Below, in pieces: positions 46,462 to 62,303 of a DNA stretch of 64,000 nucleotides. Both the position numbers and the translations under genes were made by a program. The notes under the pieces are model-generated. The model saw nothing but the letters and a program-made list of their open reading frames with translations. It was not told the DNA's origin and made no database searches. Each line of letters begins with the position of its first letter. The first letter of the stretch is position 1. Source of the DNA: Acidimicrobiaceae bacterium (GTDB lineage Bacteria > Actinomycetota > Acidimicrobiia > Acidimicrobiales > JACDCH01); NCBI GenBank assembly GCA_041166385.1, contig JBEEFW010000021.1:32185-96184 (forward strand). The letters run 5' to 3'.

Positions 46462-48993
<2,532 letters not shown>

Positions 48994-49005: not shown

Positions 49006-52000
49006 TCAGCGCACGATGGCGAGCCGTTCGGCCGTCGTCGGTTCCGCCAACGGGACCGTTGGCGTCCGTACGACGCCGAGCCCTTCGAAGAGGGCGGCCG
49101 CCTCATCTGCGAACTCCCCCGCGCGGTCGAGACCGAGCAGGTGGCCGACCGCGCCGAGCGCCTGCAGCGTGAGCGCGGACTCGTAGTCGGCGGCGGCCTC
49201 ACGGCTGCGCACGAGGCTGTAGCCGAGCCGCGACCAACCCGTGAGGGGGTCGCCTGCTTGCGCGTAGGCGTAGCCCAGCACGCGCTCCACGAGCATCGAC
49301 ACATACGGCGACGCGTTCATGCGCTTGGCGCGCGCGTCCACGTCGTTGGCCAGTTCGATCGCCGCCGCCGGATAGCCGGCGAGCACGAACCGTTCGGCGT
49401 CGCGGGCATCTGCTTCGAGCAGCATCCCCTCACCGCCGATCCGTCGGAGCACGGCGCGCGCTTGCGCGTACCACGCTGCCGCGTCCTCGAAGCGGCCCTC
49501 GCGCGCCGCGACGCGTCCGAGGTTGCCGAGCGCCATGCCCGTCATCGCGTGCCCCGACGCCCGCCAGATCGCCAGCGCCTCGTGGAACAGCGCGTCGGCT
49601 TCGATCGTGTGTCCCTGGTCCGAGCTGATCTCGGCGATGTTGTTGAGGATGAGCGCCTCCATCGCCAGTGCGCCCGCGGCGCGGGCCGCCTCGAGGCTGT
49701 CGCGGTACCAACTGGCCGCGTCGTCCCACCGGCCCTCGTAGTACGCGGCGATGCCCATGTTGTTGAGGGCGTTGGTGCGACCGACCTCGTCGCCGAGCTC
49801 GTCGTAGATCGCGAGCGACAGTTCGCTGTACGGCACCTCGGGCTCGAGCCGCAGCTCGATGTGGATCCAGTCGAGTAGGCGATAGGCGTGGGCGAGCACC
49901 GCCCGCACCTCGGCCGGCCGGGCGGCTTCGGCGAGTCGCACCCCTTCCTCGAGGATCGGCCGCGCCTTGAGATGGCGTCCTTGGCGGAGTTGCGCGGCGC
50001 CTTGGCTGACGGTGAGCTCGGCGCGGAGACGTAGGGACTCGTGATTCATCACCGTCGTCGCCAGGGCGGCGGTGCGGTCGAGCTCTGCGAACCCTCGCTT
50101 GTACGACCGGAGCGCATCGGAGAACCGTCCCTCGCGCTCCCACACGATGCCTGCCTTGCGGAACAGGGCGGCCACCGCGTGCGGATCGCCGGCAACGAAG
50201 CGGCGCGCCTGGCGATACGCCGCCATGGCTTCCACGTAGCGGCCGCTCAGCTCGGCGGCGTCCCCGAGCCGCTCGGCGACCGCGGCTCGGGCCGGCGACG
50301 TGATCTCGGGAAGATGGCGGGCGGCCTCGAGGGCGCGGCCGTAGAACGCGGTGGCCTCGACAGGTGCTCCCGCCTGTTGCGACCGTTCGCCCGCGAGACA
50401 CGAGTACTCCCATGCCTTCGTGTAATGGCGGGCCGCGTGGAAGTGGATCGACAGCAGCTCGGCCACCTCGTCGGGGCGGTCACCGGCATCGGCCTCGAGG
50501 ATCTCTCCGGCGCGGCCGTGCAACGTGTGGCGCGCCTTGAACGAAAGTCCCTCGTACGCGACATCGCGCAGGAGCACATGACGGAAGCGGACCATGCCTC
50601 GTGTGCCACCCGCGGCGGTGTTGTCGGGTCCGAGGAAGTGTCCCAGCCGACGCAGGCGAGGGGCGAGGGCCGCGGGCGTGACGTCGAGCATCTGCGCGAG
50701 CACGGGAACAGGGAACCGGCTCCCGAGCACCGCCGCCCGCCGCAAGAGCGATCGCTCGTCGCCTGGCAGCGTGTCGATCGTCGCGGCGATGACCGCCTCG
50801 ACGGTGTCGGGCAGCTCGGTCATCGAGCCATCGGTGGCGGCGCGCACGAGCTCCTGGAGGAACAGCGGGTTGCCACCGCTGCGGCTGGCAAGGTCGGCGA
50901 GCACCTGCGGCTGGAGGCGAGCGCCGTCGCCATCGGCGGTGAGCGACGTCGCCAAGGCGGACGCCGCGGCGTCGCCGAGCGGCTCGAGGGCGATGCGTGT
51001 CGGGTTCGCGCTCTCCGCCAACGACAGTCCGCCGAGTGTCGGGCGGCGGGTGACGATGATCGCCCACGGCCGACGGGCCACGTCGTTCAGCAGTTCGTGT
51101 AGGAGATCGCTCGACGCCGCATCGAGCCAGTGCGCGTCCTCCACGGTGATCAGCGCGGGCCCGGAGAGGACCCCGATCATCAACCGGGCGACCGCGTTCT
51201 GCACGCGAGCCGGGCGAAACGCGGGGTCGAGGCGCGCCATCTCCGGCGTGTCCGCGATCTCCAGCCCGAGCGGCACGCCCAGCAACGGCAGCCAGGGCAG
51301 GAGGTCTGGCGCGACATCCGCAACCGTGCGCCGCAGCGCGGCCTCGACCTCGTCCCTGTCACTGTCGACGCCGACACCGATCGCCTGCCGCAGTGGCCGG
51401 CGGAGCGGGTAGTACGGCGTCGCGAGGCTGTAGCGCCCAGCCTCCATCGAGAACACCGGCAGGCCATGCGGCAACGAGAGCACGGCGGCGAGCAGCTTCG
51501 ATTTGCCGATGCCCGGCTCGCCCACCAGTTCGACCACCACGCCGCTGCCCTCGTGTGCATCGGCGAGTGCCGATCGGACGATCCCGAGCTCGCGGTCGCG
51601 ACCGACGAGCGGGACGTCGCCCTCGTCCGACTCCATCCCCTCGAAGGTGTCTTGGACGTCGCCGATCACCGACGCGTGTACCGGCTGCGACTTGCCCTTC
51701 ACCGCGAACGGCTCGAGCGACGTGCGAGCGAACGACGTGCGTACGCGATCGACGAGCTCGTCGGTGGCGAGCACCTGCCCCCAGTCCGCGCGGCCCATCA
51801 CGCGGGCCGCGAGGTTCACGGCGTCGCCGATCACGGTGAAGGCGCGCCGCTCGCGGCTGCCGAGATCAACGGCAAAGACGCGGCCACGGCTGGCTCCGGC
51901 GCGCAGCGGCAAGCGGCCTCCAGCGTCCACGATCCGCCGCAGTGTGTGCACGAGGCAATCCGCGTCGTCGGGTGAGGCCGCCGGCACGCCCGCCGCGATG

Positions 52001-53013
52001 ATCAGCTTGAGCGCGCCCTTGTCGACATCGGTCGCGAGAAATGTTGTGCCGTGCTCGACACACGCGTCCTGCGCGTGGGAGATCACGTCGTGCAGCGCCT
52101 CGGCCAGCGCGGCCGGACCCGCGCCGGCGAGCAACGTGTCGGTCCCGCCGATCTGCACGAAGCCGATGGCCGCCAAGCGGTGCTCGCCGTCGTCCTCGCT
52201 CGTGCGGAGATGCGTCGCCAACGCGCCAGGCAGGCCGGGCGCGTGATCGTCGACCTCAGGCGCACGCGGCACCTCGACGTCCCCGATGGGTGGCGGGCGT
52301 CGCAACAGACGCCCTTCGCCGACGTCCGCTCCGAACGTGGCCCCGTCGAGCAGCGTCGCAGTGGAACGACCGACAACGACCTGACCGCTCGCCGCGGCGG
52401 CTTCCATCGCGAGAGTCGTGGTGGCCACCGGGCCTGTCACCAACAACTCGAGATGAGATGCCCCCGTGAGGAACAGGTGGCACTCGCCGGAGCACACGCC
52501 GACGGACATCCCGAGCCGGGCGATCCCCGCTTCGGTCTCGAGCCGGCGGTATGGCCTCAGCGCGGCGAGCATCTCCGTGGCGGCGGCACTCGCTCGGACG
52601 GCATGGCCATCGCCGCTGAACAACAGGAGGACGGCGTCGCCGCCGAACTTCAGGCAGTCGCCGCCGCGAGCCCCAGCGATGGCGAGGAGATCACCGAAGA
52701 CCGCGTTGAGGATCTCGGTGAGGTGCTCGGCACCGACCTTGCCAAGTCGCGCGAGCCGCTCGGTCAGCGGCGTGAAGCCGGAGACGTCGGCGAACACGAA
52801 CGTGCCGTCGATGGCGCGCCATGCCGGTGCCGCCCCGTGGCCGAGCCACTCCGCGTGCTGTACGGAGAGGTACGCACCGAGCTGTCGTCCGTCCGCTGTT
52901 GCTGCTCGCGTCATCGCCACTACGTCTTCCGCCCGGCTGGATCCGCCTCCTGTCCAACTGTTGCAGATTCGCCTGACCGAATCGCCCCTTTGTGCCGAGA
53001 TGAGGCTGCCCAT
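49006..53013 (-). CDS. tandem class III cyclase-homology domains + STAND P-loop NTPase + TPR protein
   Basis: CHD1 spans ~aa 68-225 (FVFADVSGFT, KFGGDAV). CHD2 spans ~aa 278-445 (IGDAVNLAARV). Walker A is GEPGIGKS and Walker B ITVEDAHWLD, followed by ~600 aa of TPR-like repeats. No C-terminal HTH seen. Alternative start ATG 52914. Confidence 0.85.
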   Translation of the reverse strand: MGSLISAQRGDSVRRICNSWTGGGSSRAEDVVAMTRAATADGRQLGAYLSVQHAEWLGHGAAPAWRAIDGTFVFADVSGFTPLTERLARLGKVGAEHLTEILNAVFGDLLAIAGARGGDCLKFGGDAVLLLFSGDGHAVRASAAATEMLAALRPYRRLETEAGIARLGMSVGVCSGECHLFLTGASHLELLVTGPVATTTLAMEAAAASGQVVVGRSTATLLDGATFGADVGEGRLLRRPPPIGDVEVPRAPEVDDHAPGLPGALATHLRTSEDDGEHRLAAIGFVQIGGTDTLLAGAGPAALAEALHDVISHAQDACVEHGTTFLATDVDKGALKLIIAAGVPAASPDDADCLVHTLRRIVDAGGRLPLRAGASRGRVFAVDLGSRERRAFTVIGDAVNLAARVMGRADWGQVLATDELVDRVRTSFARTSLEPFAVKGKSQPVHASVIGDVQDTFEGMESDEGDVPLVGRDRELGIVRSALADAHEGSGVVVELVGEPGIGKSKLLAAVLSLPHGLPVFSMEAGRYSLATPYYPLRRPLRQAIGVGVDSDRDEVEAALRRTVADVAPDLLPWLPLLGVPLGLEIADTPEMARLDPAFRPARVQNAVARLMIGVLSGPALITVEDAHWLDAASSDLLHELLNDVARRPWAIIVTRRPTLGGLSLAESANPTRIALEPLGDAAASALATSLTADGDGARLQPQVLADLASRSGGNPLFLQELVRAATDGSMTELPDTVEAVIAATIDTLPGDERSLLRRAAVLGSRFPVPVLAQMLDVTPAALAPRLRRLGHFLGPDNTAAGGTRGMVRFRHVLLRDVAYEGLSFKARHTLHGRAGEILEADAGDRPDEVAELLSIHFHAARHYTKAWEYSCLAGERSQQAGAPVEATAFYGRALEAARHLPEITSPARAAVAERLGDAAELSGRYVEAMAAYRQARRFVAGDPHAVAALFRKAGIVWEREGRFSDALRSYKRGFAELDRTAALATTVMNHESLRLRAELTVSQGAAQLRQGRHLKARPILEEGVRLAEAARPAEVRAVLAHAYRLLDWIHIELRLEPEVPYSELSLAIYDELGDEVGRTNALNNMGIAAYYEGRWDDAASWYRDSLEAARAAGALAMEALILNNIAEISSDQGHTIEADALFHEALAIWRASGHAMTGMALGNLGRVAAREGRFEDAAAWYAQARAVLRRIGGEGMLLEADARDAERFVLAGYPAAAIELANDVDARAKRMNASPYVSMLVERVLGYAYAQAGDPLTGWSRLGYSLVRSREAAADYESALTLQALGAVGHLLGLDRAGEFADEAAALFEGLGVVRTPTVPLAEPTTAERLAIVR

Positions 53014-53054
53014 CCCGCCGAAGCGTCAGGGAAGTCGCACGCTCCGGCGGGACT

Positions 53055-53099
53055 GTGACGCAGTCACGCCTGGGGTTAGGCCTTTGTGACTAGTTAGGC
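53055..53099. promoter_or_regulatory. operator-like motif cluster in the divergent intergenic region
   Basis: Palindrome GTGAC-GCA-GTCAC at 53055-53067. Direct repeat TTAGGC at 53076-53081 and 53094-53099. A third GTGAC at 53086-53090. Confidence 0.25.
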
Positions 53100-53164
53100 A
53101 ACCCCCGTCCTTCGCACACTGGCGAGCAACGGACGAGACCAGGCGAACTGGGCGAGGGCACAAC

Positions 53165-56100
53165 ATGACGAAGAACTGGGTTCGGCGCGGCGTGGCGATG
53201 GCCATCTCGGTGGCCGTGATGGCGGGACTCCTTGCGGTGACGGAATCGACGGCGTCGGCCGCGACGCCACCGGCTGGCTCTGCCGGCGCGCTCGACAGCG
53301 GTTTCGGTACGGGCGGCGTCACGTCGACGTCTGACCCGACGCTGACCCTCACGGCGGCCAGCAAGGTGCTCGTGCAGCCTGACGGCAAGATCGTCGTCGC
53401 CGGCATTCAACCCGGGAGCGCTGGCAACGTCGTCGTCACCCGGTTCACCGCGACCGGAGCGAAGGACACCACGTTCGGCGCGCCCCTCGGGTACACGAAG
53501 CCAGGGCTGGGCAGCGCCTCTTCGCAAGACGGCGTGCAGATCGCGCTGCAGCCCGACGGCAAGATCCTCGTCGCCGGCTCGAAGGTGGTCAGCTCGCAAG
53601 CGAGGATCGCACTCGCCCGCCTGAACTCCAACGGCTCGCTCGACACCACCTTCGCCAGCGGCGGCACTGCGACGCTCGCCTTCGGTTCTTCCATGCCGCA
53701 ACAGCACGGCTCGGGTGTGTTGGTGCTGCCGAGCGGCCAGATCCTGATGAGCATCTGGATCGGACCGGGGCACGACGCGTTCAAAGTCGTCCGGTACTCG
53801 TCCACCGGCGTGTTCGACACCAGCTTCGGCAGCAGCGGCCTCGCGATCTCGCGCCCGATCACCGGTCAACCGGCGCAGGCCGCTGACCTCGCGTTGACAT
53901 CCGACAACAAGATCGTCGTCGTCGGGTCGGTCAACACCACCCACAACAGCATCGCCCAGACCGACACCGCCGTCGTGCGCTTCACCGCGTCCGGACAGCC
54001 GGACACGACGTTTCCCGCGCCGTCCGGCAACTCGCAAGGTGCGGCCATCCTCGACCGGAACAGCTCGAAGAACGATGCCGCCAACGCGGTGCTGATCGAC
54101 GCGTCCGGTCGCATCAACCTCTCTGGCACCATCGCGTCGACGCCGTCAGCGGCCTACGTGATGCGACTCACGTCGACTGGTGTGGCCGACTCGACGTTCG
54201 GTACCGGCGGCGTGCTGCAAGGCACCTTCGGCGGCGCGGCCGCGACGGGCGGCGGCGCGGCCTTCGACGCCAACGGGCGGCTGCTCGTCGCCGGCGGCGA
54301 CGGGGCATCGACCACGAACGCGCTCGGCATCGAGCGTCTGTTGTCGAGCGGCGCGACGCCGTACGACGGCACCTTCGGTCTGACGAGCACGCCGGGACGC
54401 GAGAGCGTCGTGTGCTCACCGGCGAACTCCGGCGCGGGGTACTCGGTCGCGGTGCAGCCCGATCAGCGCATCGTGCTCGCCGGTGTGTGCAACGGAGCCA
54501 TCACCGTCGCGCGCCTGAATGTCGGCAACCTCAGCAACCTCACGATGACGACCTCGACGCCCAACGCGCCGGCGGGTCACGGCACGATCCCGCTGTCGAG
54601 CGTTCCGGGCGGCGCGCTGCTGTCGACCACGAACAGCCTCATGAGCTCACCTGGATTCGGAACGCCCGGCTTTGGCACCCCGGGATTCGGTTCACCCGGA
54701 TTCGGTAGTCCCGGCTTCGGCACCCCCGGTTTCGGCACCCCCGGTTTCGGCACGCCGGGATTCGGCACGCCGGGATTCGGCACGCCGGTCGACCAGTCGC
54801 CGTTGACCGATCCGTTCCTCGGCCCGATTCCGCTGTCGGCGATCGCGATCTCTCCGTCGGCGCTCGATCCAACGGCGCCGTCGACGTGGGACCAGGTGCT
54901 CGCGGGCACGGTGTATGCCGGACTGCCCACGCAGAGCATCACGATCCAACAGCTGTTCGCGCTCAACCCGGTTCCTGCCGCGTTGCACAAGGTGACCATC
55001 GGTCAGCTCGACGTCAGCGCGACGGGTCTGCGGAAGGCCAGCGTCGGCGCGTACCTGCTGGGGCGCACACCCACGTCGGCGCTCCCGGCTCCGGCCGGCG
55101 GCTTCTGCAACTACCTGACGGGCCAACCTGCCAACTGCTCGAACACCAACGTTGCAACCGCGAGCTTGTTGGGTCTCGAGTTGCAGGGTGATTCGTTCCA
55201 GTCGTACTTCTCGTCGACGCCGATCAATCTCGTCGGTCTCGCGCTGACGGGCTCGCCGCTCAGCACGACGCTGCTCAACAACATCGACGTCGCGCAGACC
55301 ACGCTCGGCGCGGTCCGAGCCACTGCGCTCACGACACCGTCGACGTTCCTGAAGTGCACGCCGTCGTCCACCGCCGGCCCGTGCTACACGCTCGCCGACG
55401 CGCTGGCGTCCGGCAACATCCAGACGACAGCGGGTGCAACCCTCGGCGCGTTGCTCGCGAATTCGCCGAGCGCCGTCGGACAGCTCTACCTCTCGAACCT
55501 GCTGCTCGGTCTCATGTCGCGCCAGAGCCTTCCGATCGAGAACCTGGCCGCCACGACCGACATCGTGGCGAACTCGCCCCTGCCCACCAGCGGCGCGGCG
55601 TACACGATCGGTTTCGACATGGGCTGCGGCGCGGCCAGCTCGCTCGTGGTCACGCCCGCACTCCCGGCAGGGTTCCGGCTCATCCCGAGCACGGTGAACA
55701 TGACCGTCGGCAGCAGCTCGGTGAACACGACGGTCGGCGCCGACGGCACGATCAGGCCCTCTGGGTCCTTCTCGTGCTCGCAGACGCAGCACGTGACCGT
55801 GAATCTGCAGGCAGAGCCATCATCGGTTCTCGGGGGTCCCGTCACCGCGGGCACGACGGTCGCGGTGTCGACCGACTCGTTGTCGCTCAGCAACCAGGCA
55901 CCCGTGACGACCGTCGACAACTTCGAGCCCGACGACGTGACCGCCGGCAACCCAGGGAACAGCAAGCCCTTCGGCTCGCTGTACCTCGGTCACATCTCCG
56001 GTCCTGGCGACATCGACTATTTCGTGCTCCAGCCGCCGCCGTCAGGTTCGACGGTGACGGTGACGCTGAGCAACCTCCCGATCGACGCCGACCTCATGAT

Positions 56101-59100
56101 GTACGGCGCGGCCTCGCCGCTGCTTCGAGCCTCACCCGGTTTCGGCACGCCCGGCTTCGGGACTCCTGGGTTCGGGTCGCCTGGCTTCGGGACTCCTGGG
56201 TTCGGGTCGCCTGGCTTCGGGTCGCCCGGCTTCGGTTCACCTGGTTTCGGGACGCCTGGCTTCGGCTCGCCCGGCTTCGGGAGCGACGCGGCCGACAAGG
56301 CCACCCCGCCGCAACTCACTGATGACGTGCCACGGCTCAACCTTCCCGTCCGTGGCTTCTCGGCGCAGCGCAATCTCGTCGGAGAGTCGATCACCACGAA
56401 GGTCACCGACGCCGACACCTCGCCGCTGCTGATCCAAGTGTCCGGGTACAACGGCGCCTCCAGCCCGCAGCCGTACACGCTGCGGATCTCGGCGACGCCC
56501 GCGCCCGGTGCGATCCCGTGTCAGGCGCGATCGTTCCCGACCCGCGGTACTGCCGGCACGCTGCCGTCGACGCCGCTGCCGGGCAACACGCAGACGCTGA
56601 TCCTCACCAACCAGAAGCGCCTCGGTGACGTGTACGGAAACGTCGCATTGCCTGGTGGCTTCAACGGCGACGCGGGCGTGGGCATGACTGCCCGCCTCCA
56701 GTCGCTCGCCGGCCAGTCGTACGTCAACGGCGTCGTGGTGCCTGTCGAAGGCGACGCGGCCGTGGCGAACGCGTATGCCGCGTGGGACGCGTCACCATGC
56801 AACGTCGCGCTTGCGAACGACGTGGTCGCGAAGGTCAATGCCCTCGTCGACCGGCTGCGCTCGGGTCTCAACGACCTGCGCTACATCGTGATCGCCGGCT
56901 CGGACGAGATCATCCCGATGGGCCGCGTGCCGGACAAGACCGCGTTCTACAACGAGGCCGGGTTCTCGGCCGGCATCTTCGGTGGGGCCGACAACGCGCA
57001 GTCGAGCGCGGCCAAGAAGGGCTTCATCCTCTCCGACAACCCGTTCGGTGACTTCGCGCCGACCGCCATGCTCGATACGCAACTGTTCGTGCCGCAGATC
57101 GCGGTCGGTCGACTCGTCGAGACGCCCGCCGAGATGGCCGCGAGCGTCGACGGCTGCGTCACCGCCGGCTGCCGAACGACTCCGAGTGCCTCGTTCGTGA
57201 CCGGATACGCACCGATGGACAAGGGTGCGCAGGAGATCAACTCGATCCTGGCGCAGCGGGGCGTGGCCACAAGCTCACAGATCAACAACACGTGGACCCG
57301 CAACGACGCGAAGAACGGTCTCGCCAGTGCCGCGAACGGCTACGGCGCGATCAACGCGCACTACGACTACTCGCGGGCGCTTCCCGCGCAGGAGTTCACG
57401 AACGGCACCGAGTCGGATCCGCTGTCGACGGCCGATCTTCCGAGCTCGCTCGCGGGGGGCGTGCAATGGACGATCGGATGTCACTCCGGTCTCAACATCC
57501 CCGACATCTACATCGCGTCACCGACCCAAGCCGAGCAGGCGAAGACGCTCGACTGGTCACAGGCGATGCTGCACAACGGTGCTGCCGGCTTCGTCGGACA
57601 GACCGGCTACGGCCTCGGAGACACCGATGCTCTCGCGTACTCCGAGCGTCTGTCGGTCGCGTTCGCGAAGAACCTCGACGGCACGATGACGATCGGACAG
57701 GCGCTTGCCTTCGCGAAGCAACAGTTCCTCGCCACGGGCGCGCCGAGCGTCTACGACGTGAAATCGGTTCAAGAGGCCACGTTCTACGGCTTGCCGATGT
57801 GGAGGATCGGACCGAGTGGTACGAGCGCACAGGCGACGTTGCCTCCGCCTCCGCCGTCACCGCCGTCGACCGTGACGCTCGCGAGCACGTCGAAGCAGTT
57901 CGACTCGGCCGTGACGCCGTTCAGCAACCCGCCCCGCACGTCGAACAACGGACGCGGGCAGTACTACACGGTTGGCAACGAAGCGCCGCAGGTGACGCCG
58001 AACCAGCCGATCGAGCCGCGCACCGAGATCCAGCTGGATCCGCGCAGTGACGGTCTCGTTGCGCACGGAGCAGTCATCGAGACGCTCAGCTCGCAGGACA
58101 CCCCCGGGTTCAACCCCATCTACGCGACTGCGATCGCGGACGTCGGTACGTTCAATCCGGAGCCCAAGGTCAGCACCGCGTACTTCCCGTCGGCGTTGCA
58201 GTCGGTCTCGGGCATCGTCACGCCGAACGGCCGTCGCGACTCCGTCGTGCTCGTGCCGGGCCAGTTCTTCAGCGACGGCAGCGGTACCGGCACCGGAACG
58301 CAACGGCTGTACACGAAGGTCGGCCTCACCGTCCTGTCGTCGAACTCCCTCGACTCCACCGCGCCGCGCATCGCGACGGTGAACGGCGGCATCCAGGGCA
58401 TCACCGCGTCCTTCACGGTCACCACGCCGGCCACCGACGTCCAGCGAGCCGTCTTCCTGGTGCTCGTGAATCCCTCACAGGGCTGGAAGCACGTCGAAGC
58501 GGTCAACGCGGGCGGAGGCAAGTGGGTCGGCACGATGACGGTGCCGTCGGGCACGCCGTCGATCGGTCAGTACTTCGTGCAGCTCGCTGACACGAGCGGC
58601 AACGTCGGCATCGACTCGAACAAGGGCCAGGACTGGTCGGCTGGCGGCATCCCTGGCTTCTCCTTCAGCGCCAACCCCGGAGCGGACCCCAACACCGGCC
58701 TCTACCCGGACGGCACCACGGTCAGCATCACCCCGCCCACCGGTGTCTCATTCACGTACAGCCTCGACGGAGGACCCAACCAGTCCTACACGGGCCCGAT
58801 CACGATCACCGGCGACAAGGGTCACACCCTGACCGCCACTGCATCGAACGGCGTGACTGCATCGCTCGGCATCCCGATCGACGCGCATGATCCGACGGCG
58901 ACGATCACCTCACCGGCCAACGGTGGCAACTACAACCGCGGTCAGGTGGTGACGCCTGCGTACTCGTGCTCGAGCGCGGTCACGATCCGATCGTGCACCG
59001 GTCCGACGACGGTCGACACGTCGTCGCCGGGGTCGAAGACCTACACCGTGACTGCCACCGACGTGTTCGGGCGCACCGGTACCGGGTCGTCGACGTACAA

Positions 59101-59692
59101 CGTCGTCAATCGGGTGCCCGCCATCGTGTTCACGACGAAGCCGTCGAACCCGACGCACCCGGCCGATCCGGCCTACGGGAAGTTCGTGTACGCCTTGTCG
59201 GATCCTGACGACCCGGTGTCGTCGCTGTCGGTCACGTGCAAGCTCGATGGTGCGAGCGTGCCGTGCGGCAACGACCTGGCCACGGTCACGCCGGCGCCAC
59301 GGTCGGCGAGTCACACGTTCGTGGCGACGGTGACGGATCCGTTCGGCGGCACCGGTTCGGCGTCGTACACCTGGAACGTGTACTTCGACACGGTGCTCAC
59401 CGCGAACGGGGTGGTGGCCAGCATCCCGCGCTTCGATGCGGACCTGAAGACGACCGGCGGTGCGTCGGTGGGCGCGGGCAAGACCGTCCACTTCTTCGCC
59501 GGTCAGAACCAGAACCCGAGCGACGGCACGGGCGCACTGTGCTCCGCCGTGACCGATGCAAGTGGCCACGCGACGTGTGGCGACGCGGCGACCACGCTGG
59601 CTGCGCTGGGCGCAGGAGGCATCACGGTCGTGTTCTTCGGCACGGTCGACTACTGGAAGGCCGCCCCGAAGAACGCGGCGGTCGTCGGCTAG
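53165..59692 (+). CDS. giant secreted multidomain protein (propeller repeats, PGFG[ST] arrays, PPC-like, gingipain/C25-like, Ig-like modules)
   Basis: Uninterrupted 2,175-codon ORF. Signal-like N-terminus MTKNWVRRGVAMAISVAVMAGLLAVTESTASA. Domain reading is given in the findings. Confidence 0.85.
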   Translation: MTKNWVRRGVAMAISVAVMAGLLAVTESTASAATPPAGSAGALDSGFGTGGVTSTSDPTLTLTAASKVLVQPDGKIVVAGIQPGSAGNVVVTRFTATGAKDTTFGAPLGYTKPGLGSASSQDGVQIALQPDGKILVAGSKVVSSQARIALARLNSNGSLDTTFASGGTATLAFGSSMPQQHGSGVLVLPSGQILMSIWIGPGHDAFKVVRYSSTGVFDTSFGSSGLAISRPITGQPAQAADLALTSDNKIVVVGSVNTTHNSIAQTDTAVVRFTASGQPDTTFPAPSGNSQGAAILDRNSSKNDAANAVLIDASGRINLSGTIASTPSAAYVMRLTSTGVADSTFGTGGVLQGTFGGAAATGGGAAFDANGRLLVAGGDGASTTNALGIERLLSSGATPYDGTFGLTSTPGRESVVCSPANSGAGYSVAVQPDQRIVLAGVCNGAITVARLNVGNLSNLTMTTSTPNAPAGHGTIPLSSVPGGALLSTTNSLMSSPGFGTPGFGTPGFGSPGFGSPGFGTPGFGTPGFGTPGFGTPGFGTPVDQSPLTDPFLGPIPLSAIAISPSALDPTAPSTWDQVLAGTVYAGLPTQSITIQQLFALNPVPAALHKVTIGQLDVSATGLRKASVGAYLLGRTPTSALPAPAGGFCNYLTGQPANCSNTNVATASLLGLELQGDSFQSYFSSTPINLVGLALTGSPLSTTLLNNIDVAQTTLGAVRATALTTPSTFLKCTPSSTAGPCYTLADALASGNIQTTAGATLGALLANSPSAVGQLYLSNLLLGLMSRQSLPIENLAATTDIVANSPLPTSGAAYTIGFDMGCGAASSLVVTPALPAGFRLIPSTVNMTVGSSSVNTTVGADGTIRPSGSFSCSQTQHVTVNLQAEPSSVLGGPVTAGTTVAVSTDSLSLSNQAPVTTVDNFEPDDVTAGNPGNSKPFGSLYLGHISGPGDIDYFVLQPPPSGSTVTVTLSNLPIDADLMMYGAASPLLRASPGFGTPGFGTPGFGSPGFGTPGFGSPGFGSPGFGSPGFGTPGFGSPGFGSDAADKATPPQLTDDVPRLNLPVRGFSAQRNLVGESITTKVTDADTSPLLIQVSGYNGASSPQPYTLRISATPAPGAIPCQARSFPTRGTAGTLPSTPLPGNTQTLILTNQKRLGDVYGNVALPGGFNGDAGVGMTARLQSLAGQSYVNGVVVPVEGDAAVANAYAAWDASPCNVALANDVVAKVNALVDRLRSGLNDLRYIVIAGSDEIIPMGRVPDKTAFYNEAGFSAGIFGGADNAQSSAAKKGFILSDNPFGDFAPTAMLDTQLFVPQIAVGRLVETPAEMAASVDGCVTAGCRTTPSASFVTGYAPMDKGAQEINSILAQRGVATSSQINNTWTRNDAKNGLASAANGYGAINAHYDYSRALPAQEFTNGTESDPLSTADLPSSLAGGVQWTIGCHSGLNIPDIYIASPTQAEQAKTLDWSQAMLHNGAAGFVGQTGYGLGDTDALAYSERLSVAFAKNLDGTMTIGQALAFAKQQFLATGAPSVYDVKSVQEATFYGLPMWRIGPSGTSAQATLPPPPPSPPSTVTLASTSKQFDSAVTPFSNPPRTSNNGRGQYYTVGNEAPQVTPNQPIEPRTEIQLDPRSDGLVAHGAVIETLSSQDTPGFNPIYATAIADVGTFNPEPKVSTAYFPSALQSVSGIVTPNGRRDSVVLVPGQFFSDGSGTGTGTQRLYTKVGLTVLSSNSLDSTAPRIATVNGGIQGITASFTVTTPATDVQRAVFLVLVNPSQGWKHVEAVNAGGGKWVGTMTVPSGTPSIGQYFVQLADTSGNVGIDSNKGQDWSAGGIPGFSFSANPGADPNTGLYPDGTTVSITPPTGVSFTYSLDGGPNQSYTGPITITGDKGHTLTATASNGVTASLGIPIDAHDPTATITSPANGGNYNRGQVVTPAYSCSSAVTIRSCTGPTTVDTSSPGSKTYTVTATDVFGRTGTGSSTYNVVNRVPAIVFTTKPSNPTHPADPAYGKFVYALSDPDDPVSSLSVTCKLDGASVPCGNDLATVTPAPRSASHTFVATVTDPFGGTGSASYTWNVYFDTVLTANGVVASIPRFDADLKTTGGASVGAGKTVHFFAGQNQNPSDGTGALCSAVTDASGHATCGDAATTLAALGAGGITVVFFGTVDYWKAAPKNAAVVG
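54650..54784 (+). repeat. in-frame 15-bp tandem array 1 (9 units, PGFG[ST])
   Basis: Covers aa 496-540 of the giant ORF. Units 8 and 9 are nucleotide-identical. The others differ mostly at synonymous sites. Confidence 0.95.
56135..56284 (+). repeat. in-frame 15-bp tandem array 2 (10 units, PGFG[ST])
   Basis: Covers aa 991-1040. Contains an exact 30-bp tandem duplication (56153-56182 = 56183-56212). Confidence 0.95.
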
Positions 59693-59696
59693 CGCG

Positions 59697-59724
59697 ATCC
59701 GGGGCGGGTTCACCCGCCCCGGAT
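59697..59724 (+). terminator. GC-rich perfect hairpin after the giant gene
   Basis: Sequence is ATCCGGGGCGGG-TTCA-CCCGCCCCGGAT (12-bp stem), starting 5 nt after the TAG at 59690-59692. No clear T-tract follows. Confidence 0.55.
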
Positions 59725-59746
59725 GTGCGCAGTAGGGTCCGGCGTC

Positions 59747-60121
59747 GTGTACCGGAAGATCCTCGTCGGCACCGATGGATCGACGACCGCGGCCAAGGCC
59801 GTCGATCGTGCCGTCGACGTCGCCAAGGCCGCGGGTGCGACCCTCACGATCTTCACGGCCGCGCCACCGAGCAAGGGCGACAAGATCGTTGCCGCCGAAT
59901 CGCAGCGCCACGCCAACTCCGGGGTCGCCATCGACACCCGTGTTTCCGACGCCGAGCCGGTCGGTGCGCTCATCGACACTGCTCGCTCGGGTGGGTACGA
60001 CCTCGTGGTGATCGGCAACCGCGGCATGACCGGCGTGACCCGCTTCCTGCGGCTCGGGTCGGTGCCGAACAAGGTGAGCCACCATCTGCCGTGCAGCCTG
60101 CTCATCGTCAAGACAACCTGA
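59747..60121 (+). CDS. universal stress protein (UspA family)
   Basis: GTG 59747 (VYRKILVGTDGS...). C-terminal ...VVIGNRGMTGVTRFLRLGSVPNKVSHHLPCSLLIV. Confidence 0.8.
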   Translation: MYRKILVGTDGSTTAAKAVDRAVDVAKAAGATLTIFTAAPPSKGDKIVAAESQRHANSGVAIDTRVSDAEPVGALIDTARSGGYDLVVIGNRGMTGVTRFLRLGSVPNKVSHHLPCSLLIVKTT

Positions 60122-60947: not shown

Positions 60948-62303
60948 ATGGCGAAACAGCGGATCGAGTACCGGTGTGACGAGTGCGGGGCGTCTGCGCC
61001 GCAGTGGGCGGGGAAGTGTGCGGCCTGCGGAGCGTGGAACTCCCTCCAAGAGGGGCGGGCGCTGACCGCGTCGCCCGCGCTGGTGGGGGTAGCGCTGCTC
61101 CAGCCGGCGGTGCCGGTGGTCGAGGTCGACATGACCGAGTGGGAAGCGCGCTCGACCGGTATCGGCGAACTCGACCGCGTGCTGGCGGGCGGGCTGGTGC
61201 CCGGGTCGGTCACGCTGGTCGGAGGCGAGCCGGGCGTCGGCAAGTCGACACTGCTCACGCAGGCCGCCGCGGCGATGGCGCACGCCGGTGGACGCGTGCT
61301 CTACGTGACCGCGGAAGAGTCGAGTCAGCAAGTGCGGCTGCGCGCCGAACGCCTCGGCGCGCTCGCGCCGCGCCTGCTGCTGGCCGCCGAGACGAACCTT
61401 TCCAACATCGTGAGCCATCTCGACGCCGTGCGACCAGACGTCGTGATCGTCGACTCGATCCAGACGGTGCACGATCCCGACATCGGTTCCGCGCCGGGTT
61501 CGGTCGTGCAGGTGCGCGAGTGCGCGCACCGTCTCGTCCGCGAAGCCAAGGAGCGCGGCGTCGCGATCGTCCTCGTGGGCCACGTGACCAAAGACGGCGC
61601 ACTCGCCGGCCCTCGCGTGCTCGAGCACGTGGTCGACACCGTGCTGGCGTTCGAGGGTGAGCACCACCACGCATTGCGTCTCGTGCGGGCGGTGAAGCAC
61701 CGCTTCGGATCCACCAATGAGGTCGGCCTCTTCGAGATGAGCGACAGCGGCTTGATCCCGGTGCCCGACGCGAGCGCGCTGTTCCTGGCCGACCGCCGGC
61801 CGGGCGTGCCTGGCTCGGCCGTGGTGCCCGCGCTCGACGGCCACCGCCCGCTCCTCGTCGAGGTGCAAGCGCTCACCATCGACAACAACGCACCGATGGC
61901 GCGGCGCTCGGCGCAAGGTCTCGATGCGGGCCGGCTCGCCTTCCTGCTCGCGGTGCTCGAACGACACGCGGAGCTCGCCATCGTCAAGCACGACGTGTTC
62001 GCGCTGGCAGTCGGCGGTGCTCGCGTCGTCGAGCCCGGCGCCGACCTCGCCATCGCGCTCGCGGTTGCGTCGTCGCACGCGAACCTGCCCCTTGCCGACG
62101 ACGTGGTCGCCTGCGCCGAGCTCGGTCTCGGAGGCGAACTGCGTCAGGTGAGCCAGACGCCGCGCCGCCTGGCCGAGGCCGCGCGGCTCGGATTTCGGCG
62201 CGTGTTCTTGCCACACTCCGCGCCGGAGCCGCCACCGGGGCTGACCGCAGTGCGCGCGGCGACCATCGGCGAAGCGATCACGCTGGCGGGCCTCCGCTCG
62301 TAG
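60948..62303 (+). CDS. radA: DNA repair protein RadA/Sms
   Basis: Zinc finger CDECGASAPQWAGKCAACGAWNS, Walker A GEPGVGKST, KHRFG motif and a Lon-like C-terminus. Confidence 0.95.
   Translation: MAKQRIEYRCDECGASAPQWAGKCAACGAWNSLQEGRALTASPALVGVALLQPAVPVVEVDMTEWEARSTGIGELDRVLAGGLVPGSVTLVGGEPGVGKSTLLTQAAAAMAHAGGRVLYVTAEESSQQVRLRAERLGALAPRLLLAAETNLSNIVSHLDAVRPDVVIVDSIQTVHDPDIGSAPGSVVQVRECAHRLVREAKERGVAIVLVGHVTKDGALAGPRVLEHVVDTVLAFEGEHHHALRLVRAVKHRFGSTNEVGLFEMSDSGLIPVPDASALFLADRRPGVPGSAVVPALDGHRPLLVEVQALTIDNNAPMARRSAQGLDAGRLAFLLAVLERHAELAIVKHDVFALAVGGARVVEPGADLAIALAVASSHANLPLADDVVACAELGLGGELRQVSQTPRRLAEAARLGFRRVFLPHSAPEPPPGLTAVRAATIGEAITLAGLRS

Follow-up and report, generated by a model that had tools for sequence, protein, structure and literature searches.

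The largest open reading frame (ORF) in a 64,000-nucleotide stretch of DNA from an Acidimicrobiaceae bacterium (contig JBEEFW010000021.1, positions 32,185 to 96,184; hereafter the window) encodes a protein of 2175 amino acids (aa), here called P0001. On its predicted structure, the region at aa ~1150-1530 is a C25-like cysteine peptidase domain with a caspase fold. With a probability of about 0.6, P0001 is a large, secreted and active C25-type cysteine peptidase that has a dedicated sensor or regulator in the product of the divergent neighbouring gene, P0002, a protein combining a nucleotide cyclase, a STAND NTPase and tetratricopeptide repeats (TPR). Other P-numbers denote relatives of these proteins, and L-numbers denote loci. 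The source genome assembly measures 4.35 Mb in 170 contigs and is 87% complete. The 90%-identity cluster to which the ClpC of the window belongs includes a metagenome-assembled genome (MAG) of Acidimicrobiaceae, in keeping with this origin, and the source runs are soil metagenomes. The features on which the argument depends most directly are the following:

53165..59692, plus strand: coding sequence of the predicted secreted multidomain protein P0001, 2175 aa (ORF call)
53165..53260, plus strand: predicted Sec-type signal peptide, aa 1-~32 (sequence, hydrophobic core, kept in relatives)
56612..57754, plus strand: predicted C25/clan CD caspase-fold cysteine peptidase domain, aa ~1150-1530 (AlphaFold model with VIA-align, Foldseek, Atlas, Pfam in a relative)
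57359..57361, plus strand: codon of the putative catalytic His1399, motif NAH[YF]D (invariant in the alignment; strand placement in the model)
57479..57481, plus strand: codon of the putative catalytic Cys1439, motif GCH[SA]G (invariant in the alignment; secondary structure in the model)

The C25-like peptidase domain and its predicted export

An initial annotation, made from the sequence of the window alone, described a gingipain/C25-like region in this protein, and the case for it has become stronger than was claimed. An AlphaFold (AF2) model of aa 1150-1560 was built from a 14-sequence alignment (A2; mean predicted local distance difference test score, pLDDT, 47), and VIA-align was run on the candidates returned by Foldseek. 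The best structural match of the model is the gingipain RgpB (4ief_D, Z 14.4, 252 residues aligned, root-mean-square deviation 3.8; 1cvr, Z 14.0), and the next is Kgp (Z 12.4/11.8). Separase, CHAT/Craspase, MALT1 and the caspases rank lower, with Z of 7-10, and flavodoxin-like folds lie near 6.7. The top match in the Atlas shape search is a Peptidase_C25 cluster.

At the sequence level no gingipain was found in the PDB, either by phmmer or with a hidden Markov model (HMM) profile of the 14-sequence alignment of the C25 region. Support for the C25 call thus comes from structure and from Pfam matches in relatives. One of these, P0084 (annotated as 'C25 family cysteine peptidase' and 30% identical), matches PF01364 with 30.2 bits, above the cut-off of 23, in the homologous region and with the same motifs.

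In clan CD peptidases the third and fourth central strands carry the catalytic His and Cys at their C-terminal ends, as with His211 and Cys244 of RgpB (PMC4357240). The model of P0001 has the order beta-alpha-beta-alpha-beta-His-...-beta-Cys, with H1399 following one strand and C1439 following the next. By this order the two residues would occupy the positions of the clan CD catalytic pair. Both are invariant in the 14-sequence alignment, and a BLAST alignment of 171 relatives shows the pair intact in 164. Since the structure matches the gingipains best and the His/Cys pair is kept, the peptidase domain is most likely active, which would make P0001 as a whole a functional secreted cysteine protease.

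The export of P0001 is predicted from its N-terminus, which the initial annotation had described as signal-like, with an RR pair, a hydrophobic core and ASA. A basic n-region (K3, R7, R8) is followed by a hydrophobic core of 17 residues (aa ~9-25) and by ASA-AT near aa 29-33, which fits a Sec-type signal peptide; relatives keep their signal peptides, and the RR pair is not present in all of them. No LPXTG motif, lipobox or C-terminal transmembrane anchor was found in the P0001 sequence, as had been stated before, and the C-terminal hydrophobic stretch at aa 2141-2161 is too short and Gly-rich for an anchor. Because there is no anchor, P0001 would be released from the cell. The protein also has short-spaced Cys pairs (417/442, 648/658, 731/740, 1331/1336, 1935/1944, 2025/2034 and 2126/2138) that look like extracellular disulfides and would suit oxidising surroundings.

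The known proteins to which P0001 can be compared most closely are RgpB and Kgp of Porphyromonas gingivalis (MEROPS family C25, clan CD). They share with it the caspase-like catalytic fold (Z 14.4 and 12.4), a His and a Cys that each lie at the end of one of two successive central strands, secretion, which is predicted for P0001, and Ig-like domains that follow the catalytic domain. The route of export differs: gingipains use a C-terminal domain for type IX secretion (T9SS), whereas P0001, from a group of Actinobacteria and Chloroflexi proteins, has a predicted N-terminal Sec signal. No hemagglutinin/adhesin (cleaved adhesin) or T9SS C-terminal domains were found in P0001 by Pfam at E up to 1. 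Conversely, the N-terminal delta-60 propeller, the PPC-like domain, the PGFG linkers and a Leu/Ser/Thr-rich region of P0001 are absent from gingipains, as is the pairing of the gene with a cyclase-STAND-TPR gene. The other clan CD peptidases, namely caspases, separase, the CHAT/TPR-CHAT protein of Craspase and the MALT1 paracaspase, likewise combine a caspase-like alpha/beta fold and a His/Cys pair. However, they match less well and are intracellular, in contrast to the predicted secreted, multidomain P0001.

The cyclase-STAND-TPR partner

The partner gene and the region that it shares with the protease gene are located as follows:

49006..53013, minus strand: P0002, with a cyclase domain at aa 71-227, a STAND AAA_16 domain at aa 468-651 and MalT-like TPR at aa ~1080-1206 (Pfam, alignment to PDB cyclases)
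53014..53164, no strand: shared divergent intergenic region with the palindrome TGTGACGCAG(T)TCACG and GTTAGGC direct repeats (segment conserved in L001)

The cyclase domain of P0002 (Guanylate_cyc, 7e-16; window 52333-52803, minus strand) belongs to the class III nucleotide cyclases and aligns to CyaB and to soluble adenylyl cyclase. It is followed by an NTPase domain (AAA_16, 7.7e-18) with an intact Walker A motif, GEPGIGKS, and then by TPR_12/MalT-like repeats; no transmembrane segment was found in P0002. The metal-binding residues D76 and D126 are invariant across 66 partner sequences. AfsR and MalT are STAND transcription regulators, and P0002 resembles them in the succession of an AAA_16 STAND NTPase and MalT-like TPR. 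It differs from them in that a class III cyclase stands at the N-terminus in place of the SARP/OmpR or LuxR DNA-binding domain of the AfsR/MalT type. The best NCBIfam match of P0002 is TIGR03903, 'TOMM system kinase/cyclase fusion', with 167.5 bits against a cut-off of 705.75. A link of P0002 to TOMM biosynthesis was rejected, since this match is far below the cut-off and there are no TOMM genes among the scanned neighbours.

The genes of P0001 and P0002 are divergent and separated by 151 bp, as the initial annotation had described, and this pairing extends well beyond the window. A locus was considered evaluable if at least 4.5 kb were available on both sides of the protease gene, and the partner adjoins the protease gene in 53 of the 55 loci of this kind. 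Its placement varies: upstream and divergent (29), downstream and tandem (23), downstream and convergent (12), or upstream and tandem (6). Two loci, L017 and L020, have long flanks and no adjacent cyclase-STAND-TPR partner. Among cultured relatives, Nocardioides marmorisolisilvae has the gene pair, at locus L058. Tandem pairs are often only 8 bp apart, which suggests that they are operons. That the adjacency survives rearrangement, with all four orientations present, is strong comparative evidence for joint action of the protease and its partner. A functional link between the two is probable, and the genomic context points to regulation as its nature. As far as could be found, there is no previous description of a secreted gingipain-like protease whose gene is paired with that of an intracellular cyclase-STAND-TPR protein.

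A segment of the divergent intergenic region is conserved between the window (53050-53160) and L001 (9860-9975). In L001 the palindrome reads TGTGA-N6-TCACG, a CRP-like arrangement of half-sites, and in the window the spacer is 5 bp. The conserved palindrome and repeats are possibly a shared binding site for a regulator. In the window the pair is inserted between clpC (46462-48993, plus strand), which encodes the AAA+ chaperone ClpC, and the DNA repair gene radA (60948-62303, plus strand), in a core chromosomal region. The same clpC/radA setting is encountered in L001, with disA downstream, and the contexts differ at other loci.

Proposed mechanism and alternative explanations

According to the proposed mechanism, P0001 would be exported by Sec and then released. 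Attack on the substrate would come from the His1399/Cys1439 pair, each residue of which would sit at the C-terminal end of one of two adjacent beta-strands, similarly to RgpB and the caspases. The catalytic domain would be flanked by the propeller, the PPC-like sandwich and the PGFG linkers on its N-terminal side, and by the Ig/PKD array on its C-terminal side. These modules, with their disulfide-like Cys pairs, probably bind substrates, surfaces or polymers, and probably also hold the catalytic domain at a distance from the cell. Inside the cell, the partner would act as a sensor, in which the TPR would detect a ligand, the NTPase would drive oligomerisation, and the N-terminal cyclase domain would make or bind a cyclic nucleotide. 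Protease production would then be controlled via the cyclic nucleotide or a nucleotide-binding switch. The gene pair would thus be a co-regulated module, often arranged as one operon or around a shared divergent promoter.

A more elaborate version of this mechanism is rather unlikely. Peptides freed by the C25 protease might be re-imported and sensed by the partner, in the manner of TPR-type receptors, and the (pseudo)cyclase might then set the output of protease. If true, such a loop between extracellular proteolysis and intracellular NLR-like sensing would not have been described before.

If the protease-regulator interpretation is correct, there is a large, widespread and wholly uncharacterised family of secreted gingipain-like proteases in Actinomycetota and Chloroflexota from soil and aquatic habitats, comprising ~3,200 clusters at 50% identity. 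The C25 family, familiar so far chiefly from the periodontal pathogen Porphyromonas gingivalis, would then reach well past the Bacteroidota, and such proteases may have a part in breaking down protein and organic matter in soil and sediment. Unusual here is the pairing, found almost without exception, with a cyclase-STAND-TPR gene, since an NLR-like sensor architecture, usually associated with defence or regulation, would be tied to a secreted protease.

Several observations weigh against this interpretation. Firstly, the model of the C25 domain is of low confidence, as its pLDDT of 47 indicates, though the VIA-align match is well above the unrelated rows. Secondly, PF01364 scores only 17.2 bits on P0001 itself (E 0.0031), below the cut-off. 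Thirdly, the putative catalytic His, within NAH[YF]D, is flanked by A and Y where the His-Gly motif of clan CD would have Gly (Gly-His-Gly in gingipains), and no conserved equivalent of Asp163 in the S1 pocket of RgpB was found. Further points concern the partner. No DNA-binding domain was found in P0002, and the partner is by its sequence cytoplasmic whereas the protease is predicted to be secreted. In addition, the positions aligned to the transition-state Asn and Arg of CyaB are T/S and are variable across the 66 partners. Because the canonical Asn/Arg are absent, the partner may not make cyclic nucleotides; its cyclase domain may be non-canonical, inactive or a nucleotide-binding pseudo-cyclase, of a sort described in actinobacterial conflict systems (PMC7159879). 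This weakens, but does not refute, a simple cAMP-regulator model.

A different role for the same catalytic domain would be self-processing. The C25-like domain might act mainly in cis, cleaving the precursor into propeller, central and Ig-array fragments, rather than degrading substrates in trans. Models for this exist in the polyprotein processing of RgpA and Kgp and in the cysteine protease domain (CPD) of MARTX, and clan CD domains often autoprocess (PMC4357240). The great size of this multimodular protein, its flexible PGFG linkers and the conserved catalytic pair would all be in keeping with such a role. However, the sequence gives no indication of specific self-cleavage sites, and processing in cis is compatible with activity in trans, including with the protease-regulator model. 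As the main function of the domain, self-processing is rather unlikely.

A two-gene conflict or defence system was also considered, in which P0002 would be an NLR-like STAND-TPR-cyclase sensor and P0001 a surface protease effector against phages or competitors. In NTPase conflict systems, which are found mainly in actinobacteria, cyanobacteria and chloroflexi, caspase-like peptidases and cyclic nucleotide (cNMP) cyclases are alternative effectors, and in those of actinobacteria and cyanobacteria many of the cyclases lack activity (Kaur et al. 2020, eLife, PMC7159879). P0001 and P0002 resemble these systems in that a STAND/AP-ATPase-type NTPase with TPR, here with an intact Walker A motif, is linked to a cNMP cyclase, here without the canonical Asn/Arg, and genetically to a caspase-like peptidase. 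PADLOC also returns weak PycC-like matches for the cyclase. In contrast to the conflict systems, the cyclase and the peptidase are encoded by two genes and the peptidase is predicted to be secreted; a protease that carries a signal peptide and is exported would be no intracellular effector. PADLOC returns nothing for P0001. A scan of eight neighbouring ORFs gave ClpC, RadA, a polyprenyl synthetase, an alpha/beta hydrolase and unassigned proteins, and no vWA, MoxR or VMAP components. A core chromosomal setting, with clpC and radA on either side of the pair both in the window and in L001, also argues against a conflict system. This explanation is distinctly unlikely.

The C25-like domain could, lastly, be a dead pseudo-protease serving as a scaffold for adhesion or binding, similar to the inactive caspase-like domains of conflict systems. 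In NTPase conflict systems, some 70% of the caspase domains that occupy an effector position are inactive (PMC7159879), and P0001 itself is below the Pfam cut-off for C25. Yet the conservation of His and Cys in nearly all the aligned relatives, in a family of ~3,200 clusters, would be hard to explain without catalysis, and on the strength of the conserved pair this possibility was rejected as very improbable.

An assembly chimera, to which the length of the ORF and its repeat arrays might have pointed, and which the initial annotation had named as grounds for abandoning its description, can be dismissed with near certainty: a full-length relative from an independent JGI metagenome, P0003, is 88% identical to P0001, the architecture is common to hundreds of relatives, contigs from the probable source run cover the gene with no differences, two other soil metagenome runs hold a strain with a P0001 gene that diverges by 1-3%, and the repeat units differ in DNA.

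Flanking modules, gene boundaries and family

Outside the peptidase domain and the signal peptide, the protein and the 3' end of its gene comprise the following features:

53282..54529, plus strand: delta-60 repeat beta-propeller, aa ~40-455 (TIGR02608 2e-56, PF17164 6e-31)
54650..54784, plus strand: PGFG[ST] array 1, aa 496-540, 9 units, Gly/Pro-rich linker (motif count, Tandem Repeats Finder, TRF)
54800..55954, plus strand: Leu/Ser/Thr-rich region, aa 546-930, with Cys pairs 648/658 and 731/740 (conserved in relatives)
55952..56464, plus strand: candidate PPC-like domain, aa ~930-1100, broken by PGFG array 2 (sub-threshold PF04151 in relatives)
56135..56284, plus strand: PGFG[ST] array 2, aa 991-1040, 10 units, an insertion relative to the PPC of relatives (motif count, TRF, alignment)
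57842..59692, plus strand: predicted bacterial Ig-like/PKD-like beta-sandwich array, aa ~1560-2175, with Cys pairs 1935/1944, 2025/2034 and 2126/2138 (AF2 pLDDT 84, Foldseek, Atlas)
59692..59731, plus strand: GC-rich hairpin, 30-bp palindrome (minimum free energy, MFE, -43 kcal/mol, z -5.3; single copy)

The initial annotation had divided P0001 into modules by eye and had proposed segment-wise HMM searches and structure prediction with Foldseek as a check. These were run; they support the propeller, the C25 domain and the Ig array, and the PPC-like domain weakly. The propeller is the clearest case. TIGR02608 matches with 187.7 bits over six repeat stretches, well above the trusted NCBIfam cut-off of 76.5, in agreement with the GK(I/L)(V/L)VAG-type units noted before, and DUF5122 (PF17164) matches the same region. 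P0001 can thus be placed beside the delta-60 repeat (TIGR02608) and DUF5122 proteins, with the propeller being a modular add-on in the P0001 family. A literature search on the delta-60 repeat, DUF5122 and the 'PxKF domain' found nothing relevant.

Both PGFG[ST] arrays were confirmed. At the DNA level their units are degenerate, with a match of 78-82% according to TRF, so that the arrays are neither the product of a recent expansion nor an obvious collapse. The Leu/Ser/Thr-rich region of ~380 aa, described earlier as of unknown type, is real and conserved in relatives, and no Pfam domain matches it at E up to 10. Its sole lead is a sub-threshold DUF11-like match of the language model in the Atlas feature search.

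For the PPC-like sandwich that array 2 was said to split, the split stands and the identity is weakly supported. P0001 aa 911-1159 align with aa 1150-1359 of P0066, relative to which array 2 is an insertion, and P0066 has a PPC match (PF04151) at 1186-1292 with an E of 3.4e-5, just below the cut-off. Sub-threshold PF04151 matches are found at the equivalent place also in P0084, P0020 and P0016, and in five relatives in all, whereas the Pfam scan gave none in P0001 itself. The Atlas feature lead for this stretch is CARDB/PPC.

At the C-terminus, ~600 aa of Ig-like modules had been predicted, and the structural data bear this out. The AlphaFold model of aa 1535-2175 has a pLDDT of 84 and is all beta. 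Its nearest solved structures in Foldseek are tandem Ig/cadherin arrays, e.g., titin, GhpA, RTX adhesin and SiiE, and its nearest predicted structures are the Big_7, Big_13 and PKD clusters of the Atlas. No Pfam family scores above its cut-off in this region, and the Atlas feature search gave no usable match; it was the structure searches that resolved it.

The boundaries of the gene are well defined. The largest ORF described earlier, of 2175 aa at 53165-59692 on the plus strand, corresponds exactly to the one called here; it starts with ATG and has a ribosome-binding-like GAGGG motif 10 nt 5' of the start. The strong hairpin reported at the end of the gene is likewise present. It lies directly 3' of the stop codon, forms a near-perfect palindrome, occurs once in the window and has no T-tail, and it is probably a terminator. 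A scan of 52800-60000 for sigma-70 promoters and terminators found no consensus sites, as expected for a high-GC actinobacterium (the GC content of the window is ~68%).

The initial annotation could not assign the domain combination to any characterised family. This holds in so far as no characterised member was found in the P0001 family, but a large database-defined family does exist, so that the catalytic domain and the family are of known kinds. Automatic annotation labels its members either 'uncharacterized delta-60 repeat protein' or 'C25 family cysteine peptidase'. A homologue search for taxonomic spread and for co-occurrence with the cyclase gene, as suggested in that annotation, placed the family in Actinomycetota and Chloroflexota and gave the conserved adjacency described above. 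There are 386 homologues of the full-length class, including P0003, whose gene has the same clpC-radA-disA context, and several at ~50% identity; a search limited to shorter lengths returned fragments only. GTDB contigs, taken from one genome per species, contain 477 relatives. Most are from Actinomycetota (Acidimicrobiia/Microthrixaceae, Thermoleophilia, Gaiellales, Solirubrobacterales, Mycobacteriales, Nocardioides and Phycicoccus), and others are from Chloroflexota (Dehalococcoidia, Chloroflexia and Limnocylindrales), with one from Pirellulales. The closest relatives are from Acidimicrobiales/Microthrixaceae. When the C25 region was searched as a profile (E up to 1e-3), the peptidase module was found in 3,216 clusters at 50% identity, from Actinomycetota, Chloroflexota and some Planctomycetota.

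The N-terminal module varies among relatives and can be a delta-60 propeller, a Vgb-like propeller, pentapeptide repeats, a lectin or PKD domains. The C25-Ig core is retained while these modules change, and members without a propeller exist. In some relatives (P0017, P0045, P0162 and P0193) the C-terminus is formed by the 'PxKF' domain, NF038114 of NCBIfam, which P0001 lacks. The same genome also carries, on contig C68, a 5'-truncated paralog (L090:2114-6427, minus strand) that is 48% identical to P0001 aa 813-2072. This paralog is paired as well, with a cyclase-AAA gene (L090:1-2109, minus strand) located in tandem 4 bp downstream.

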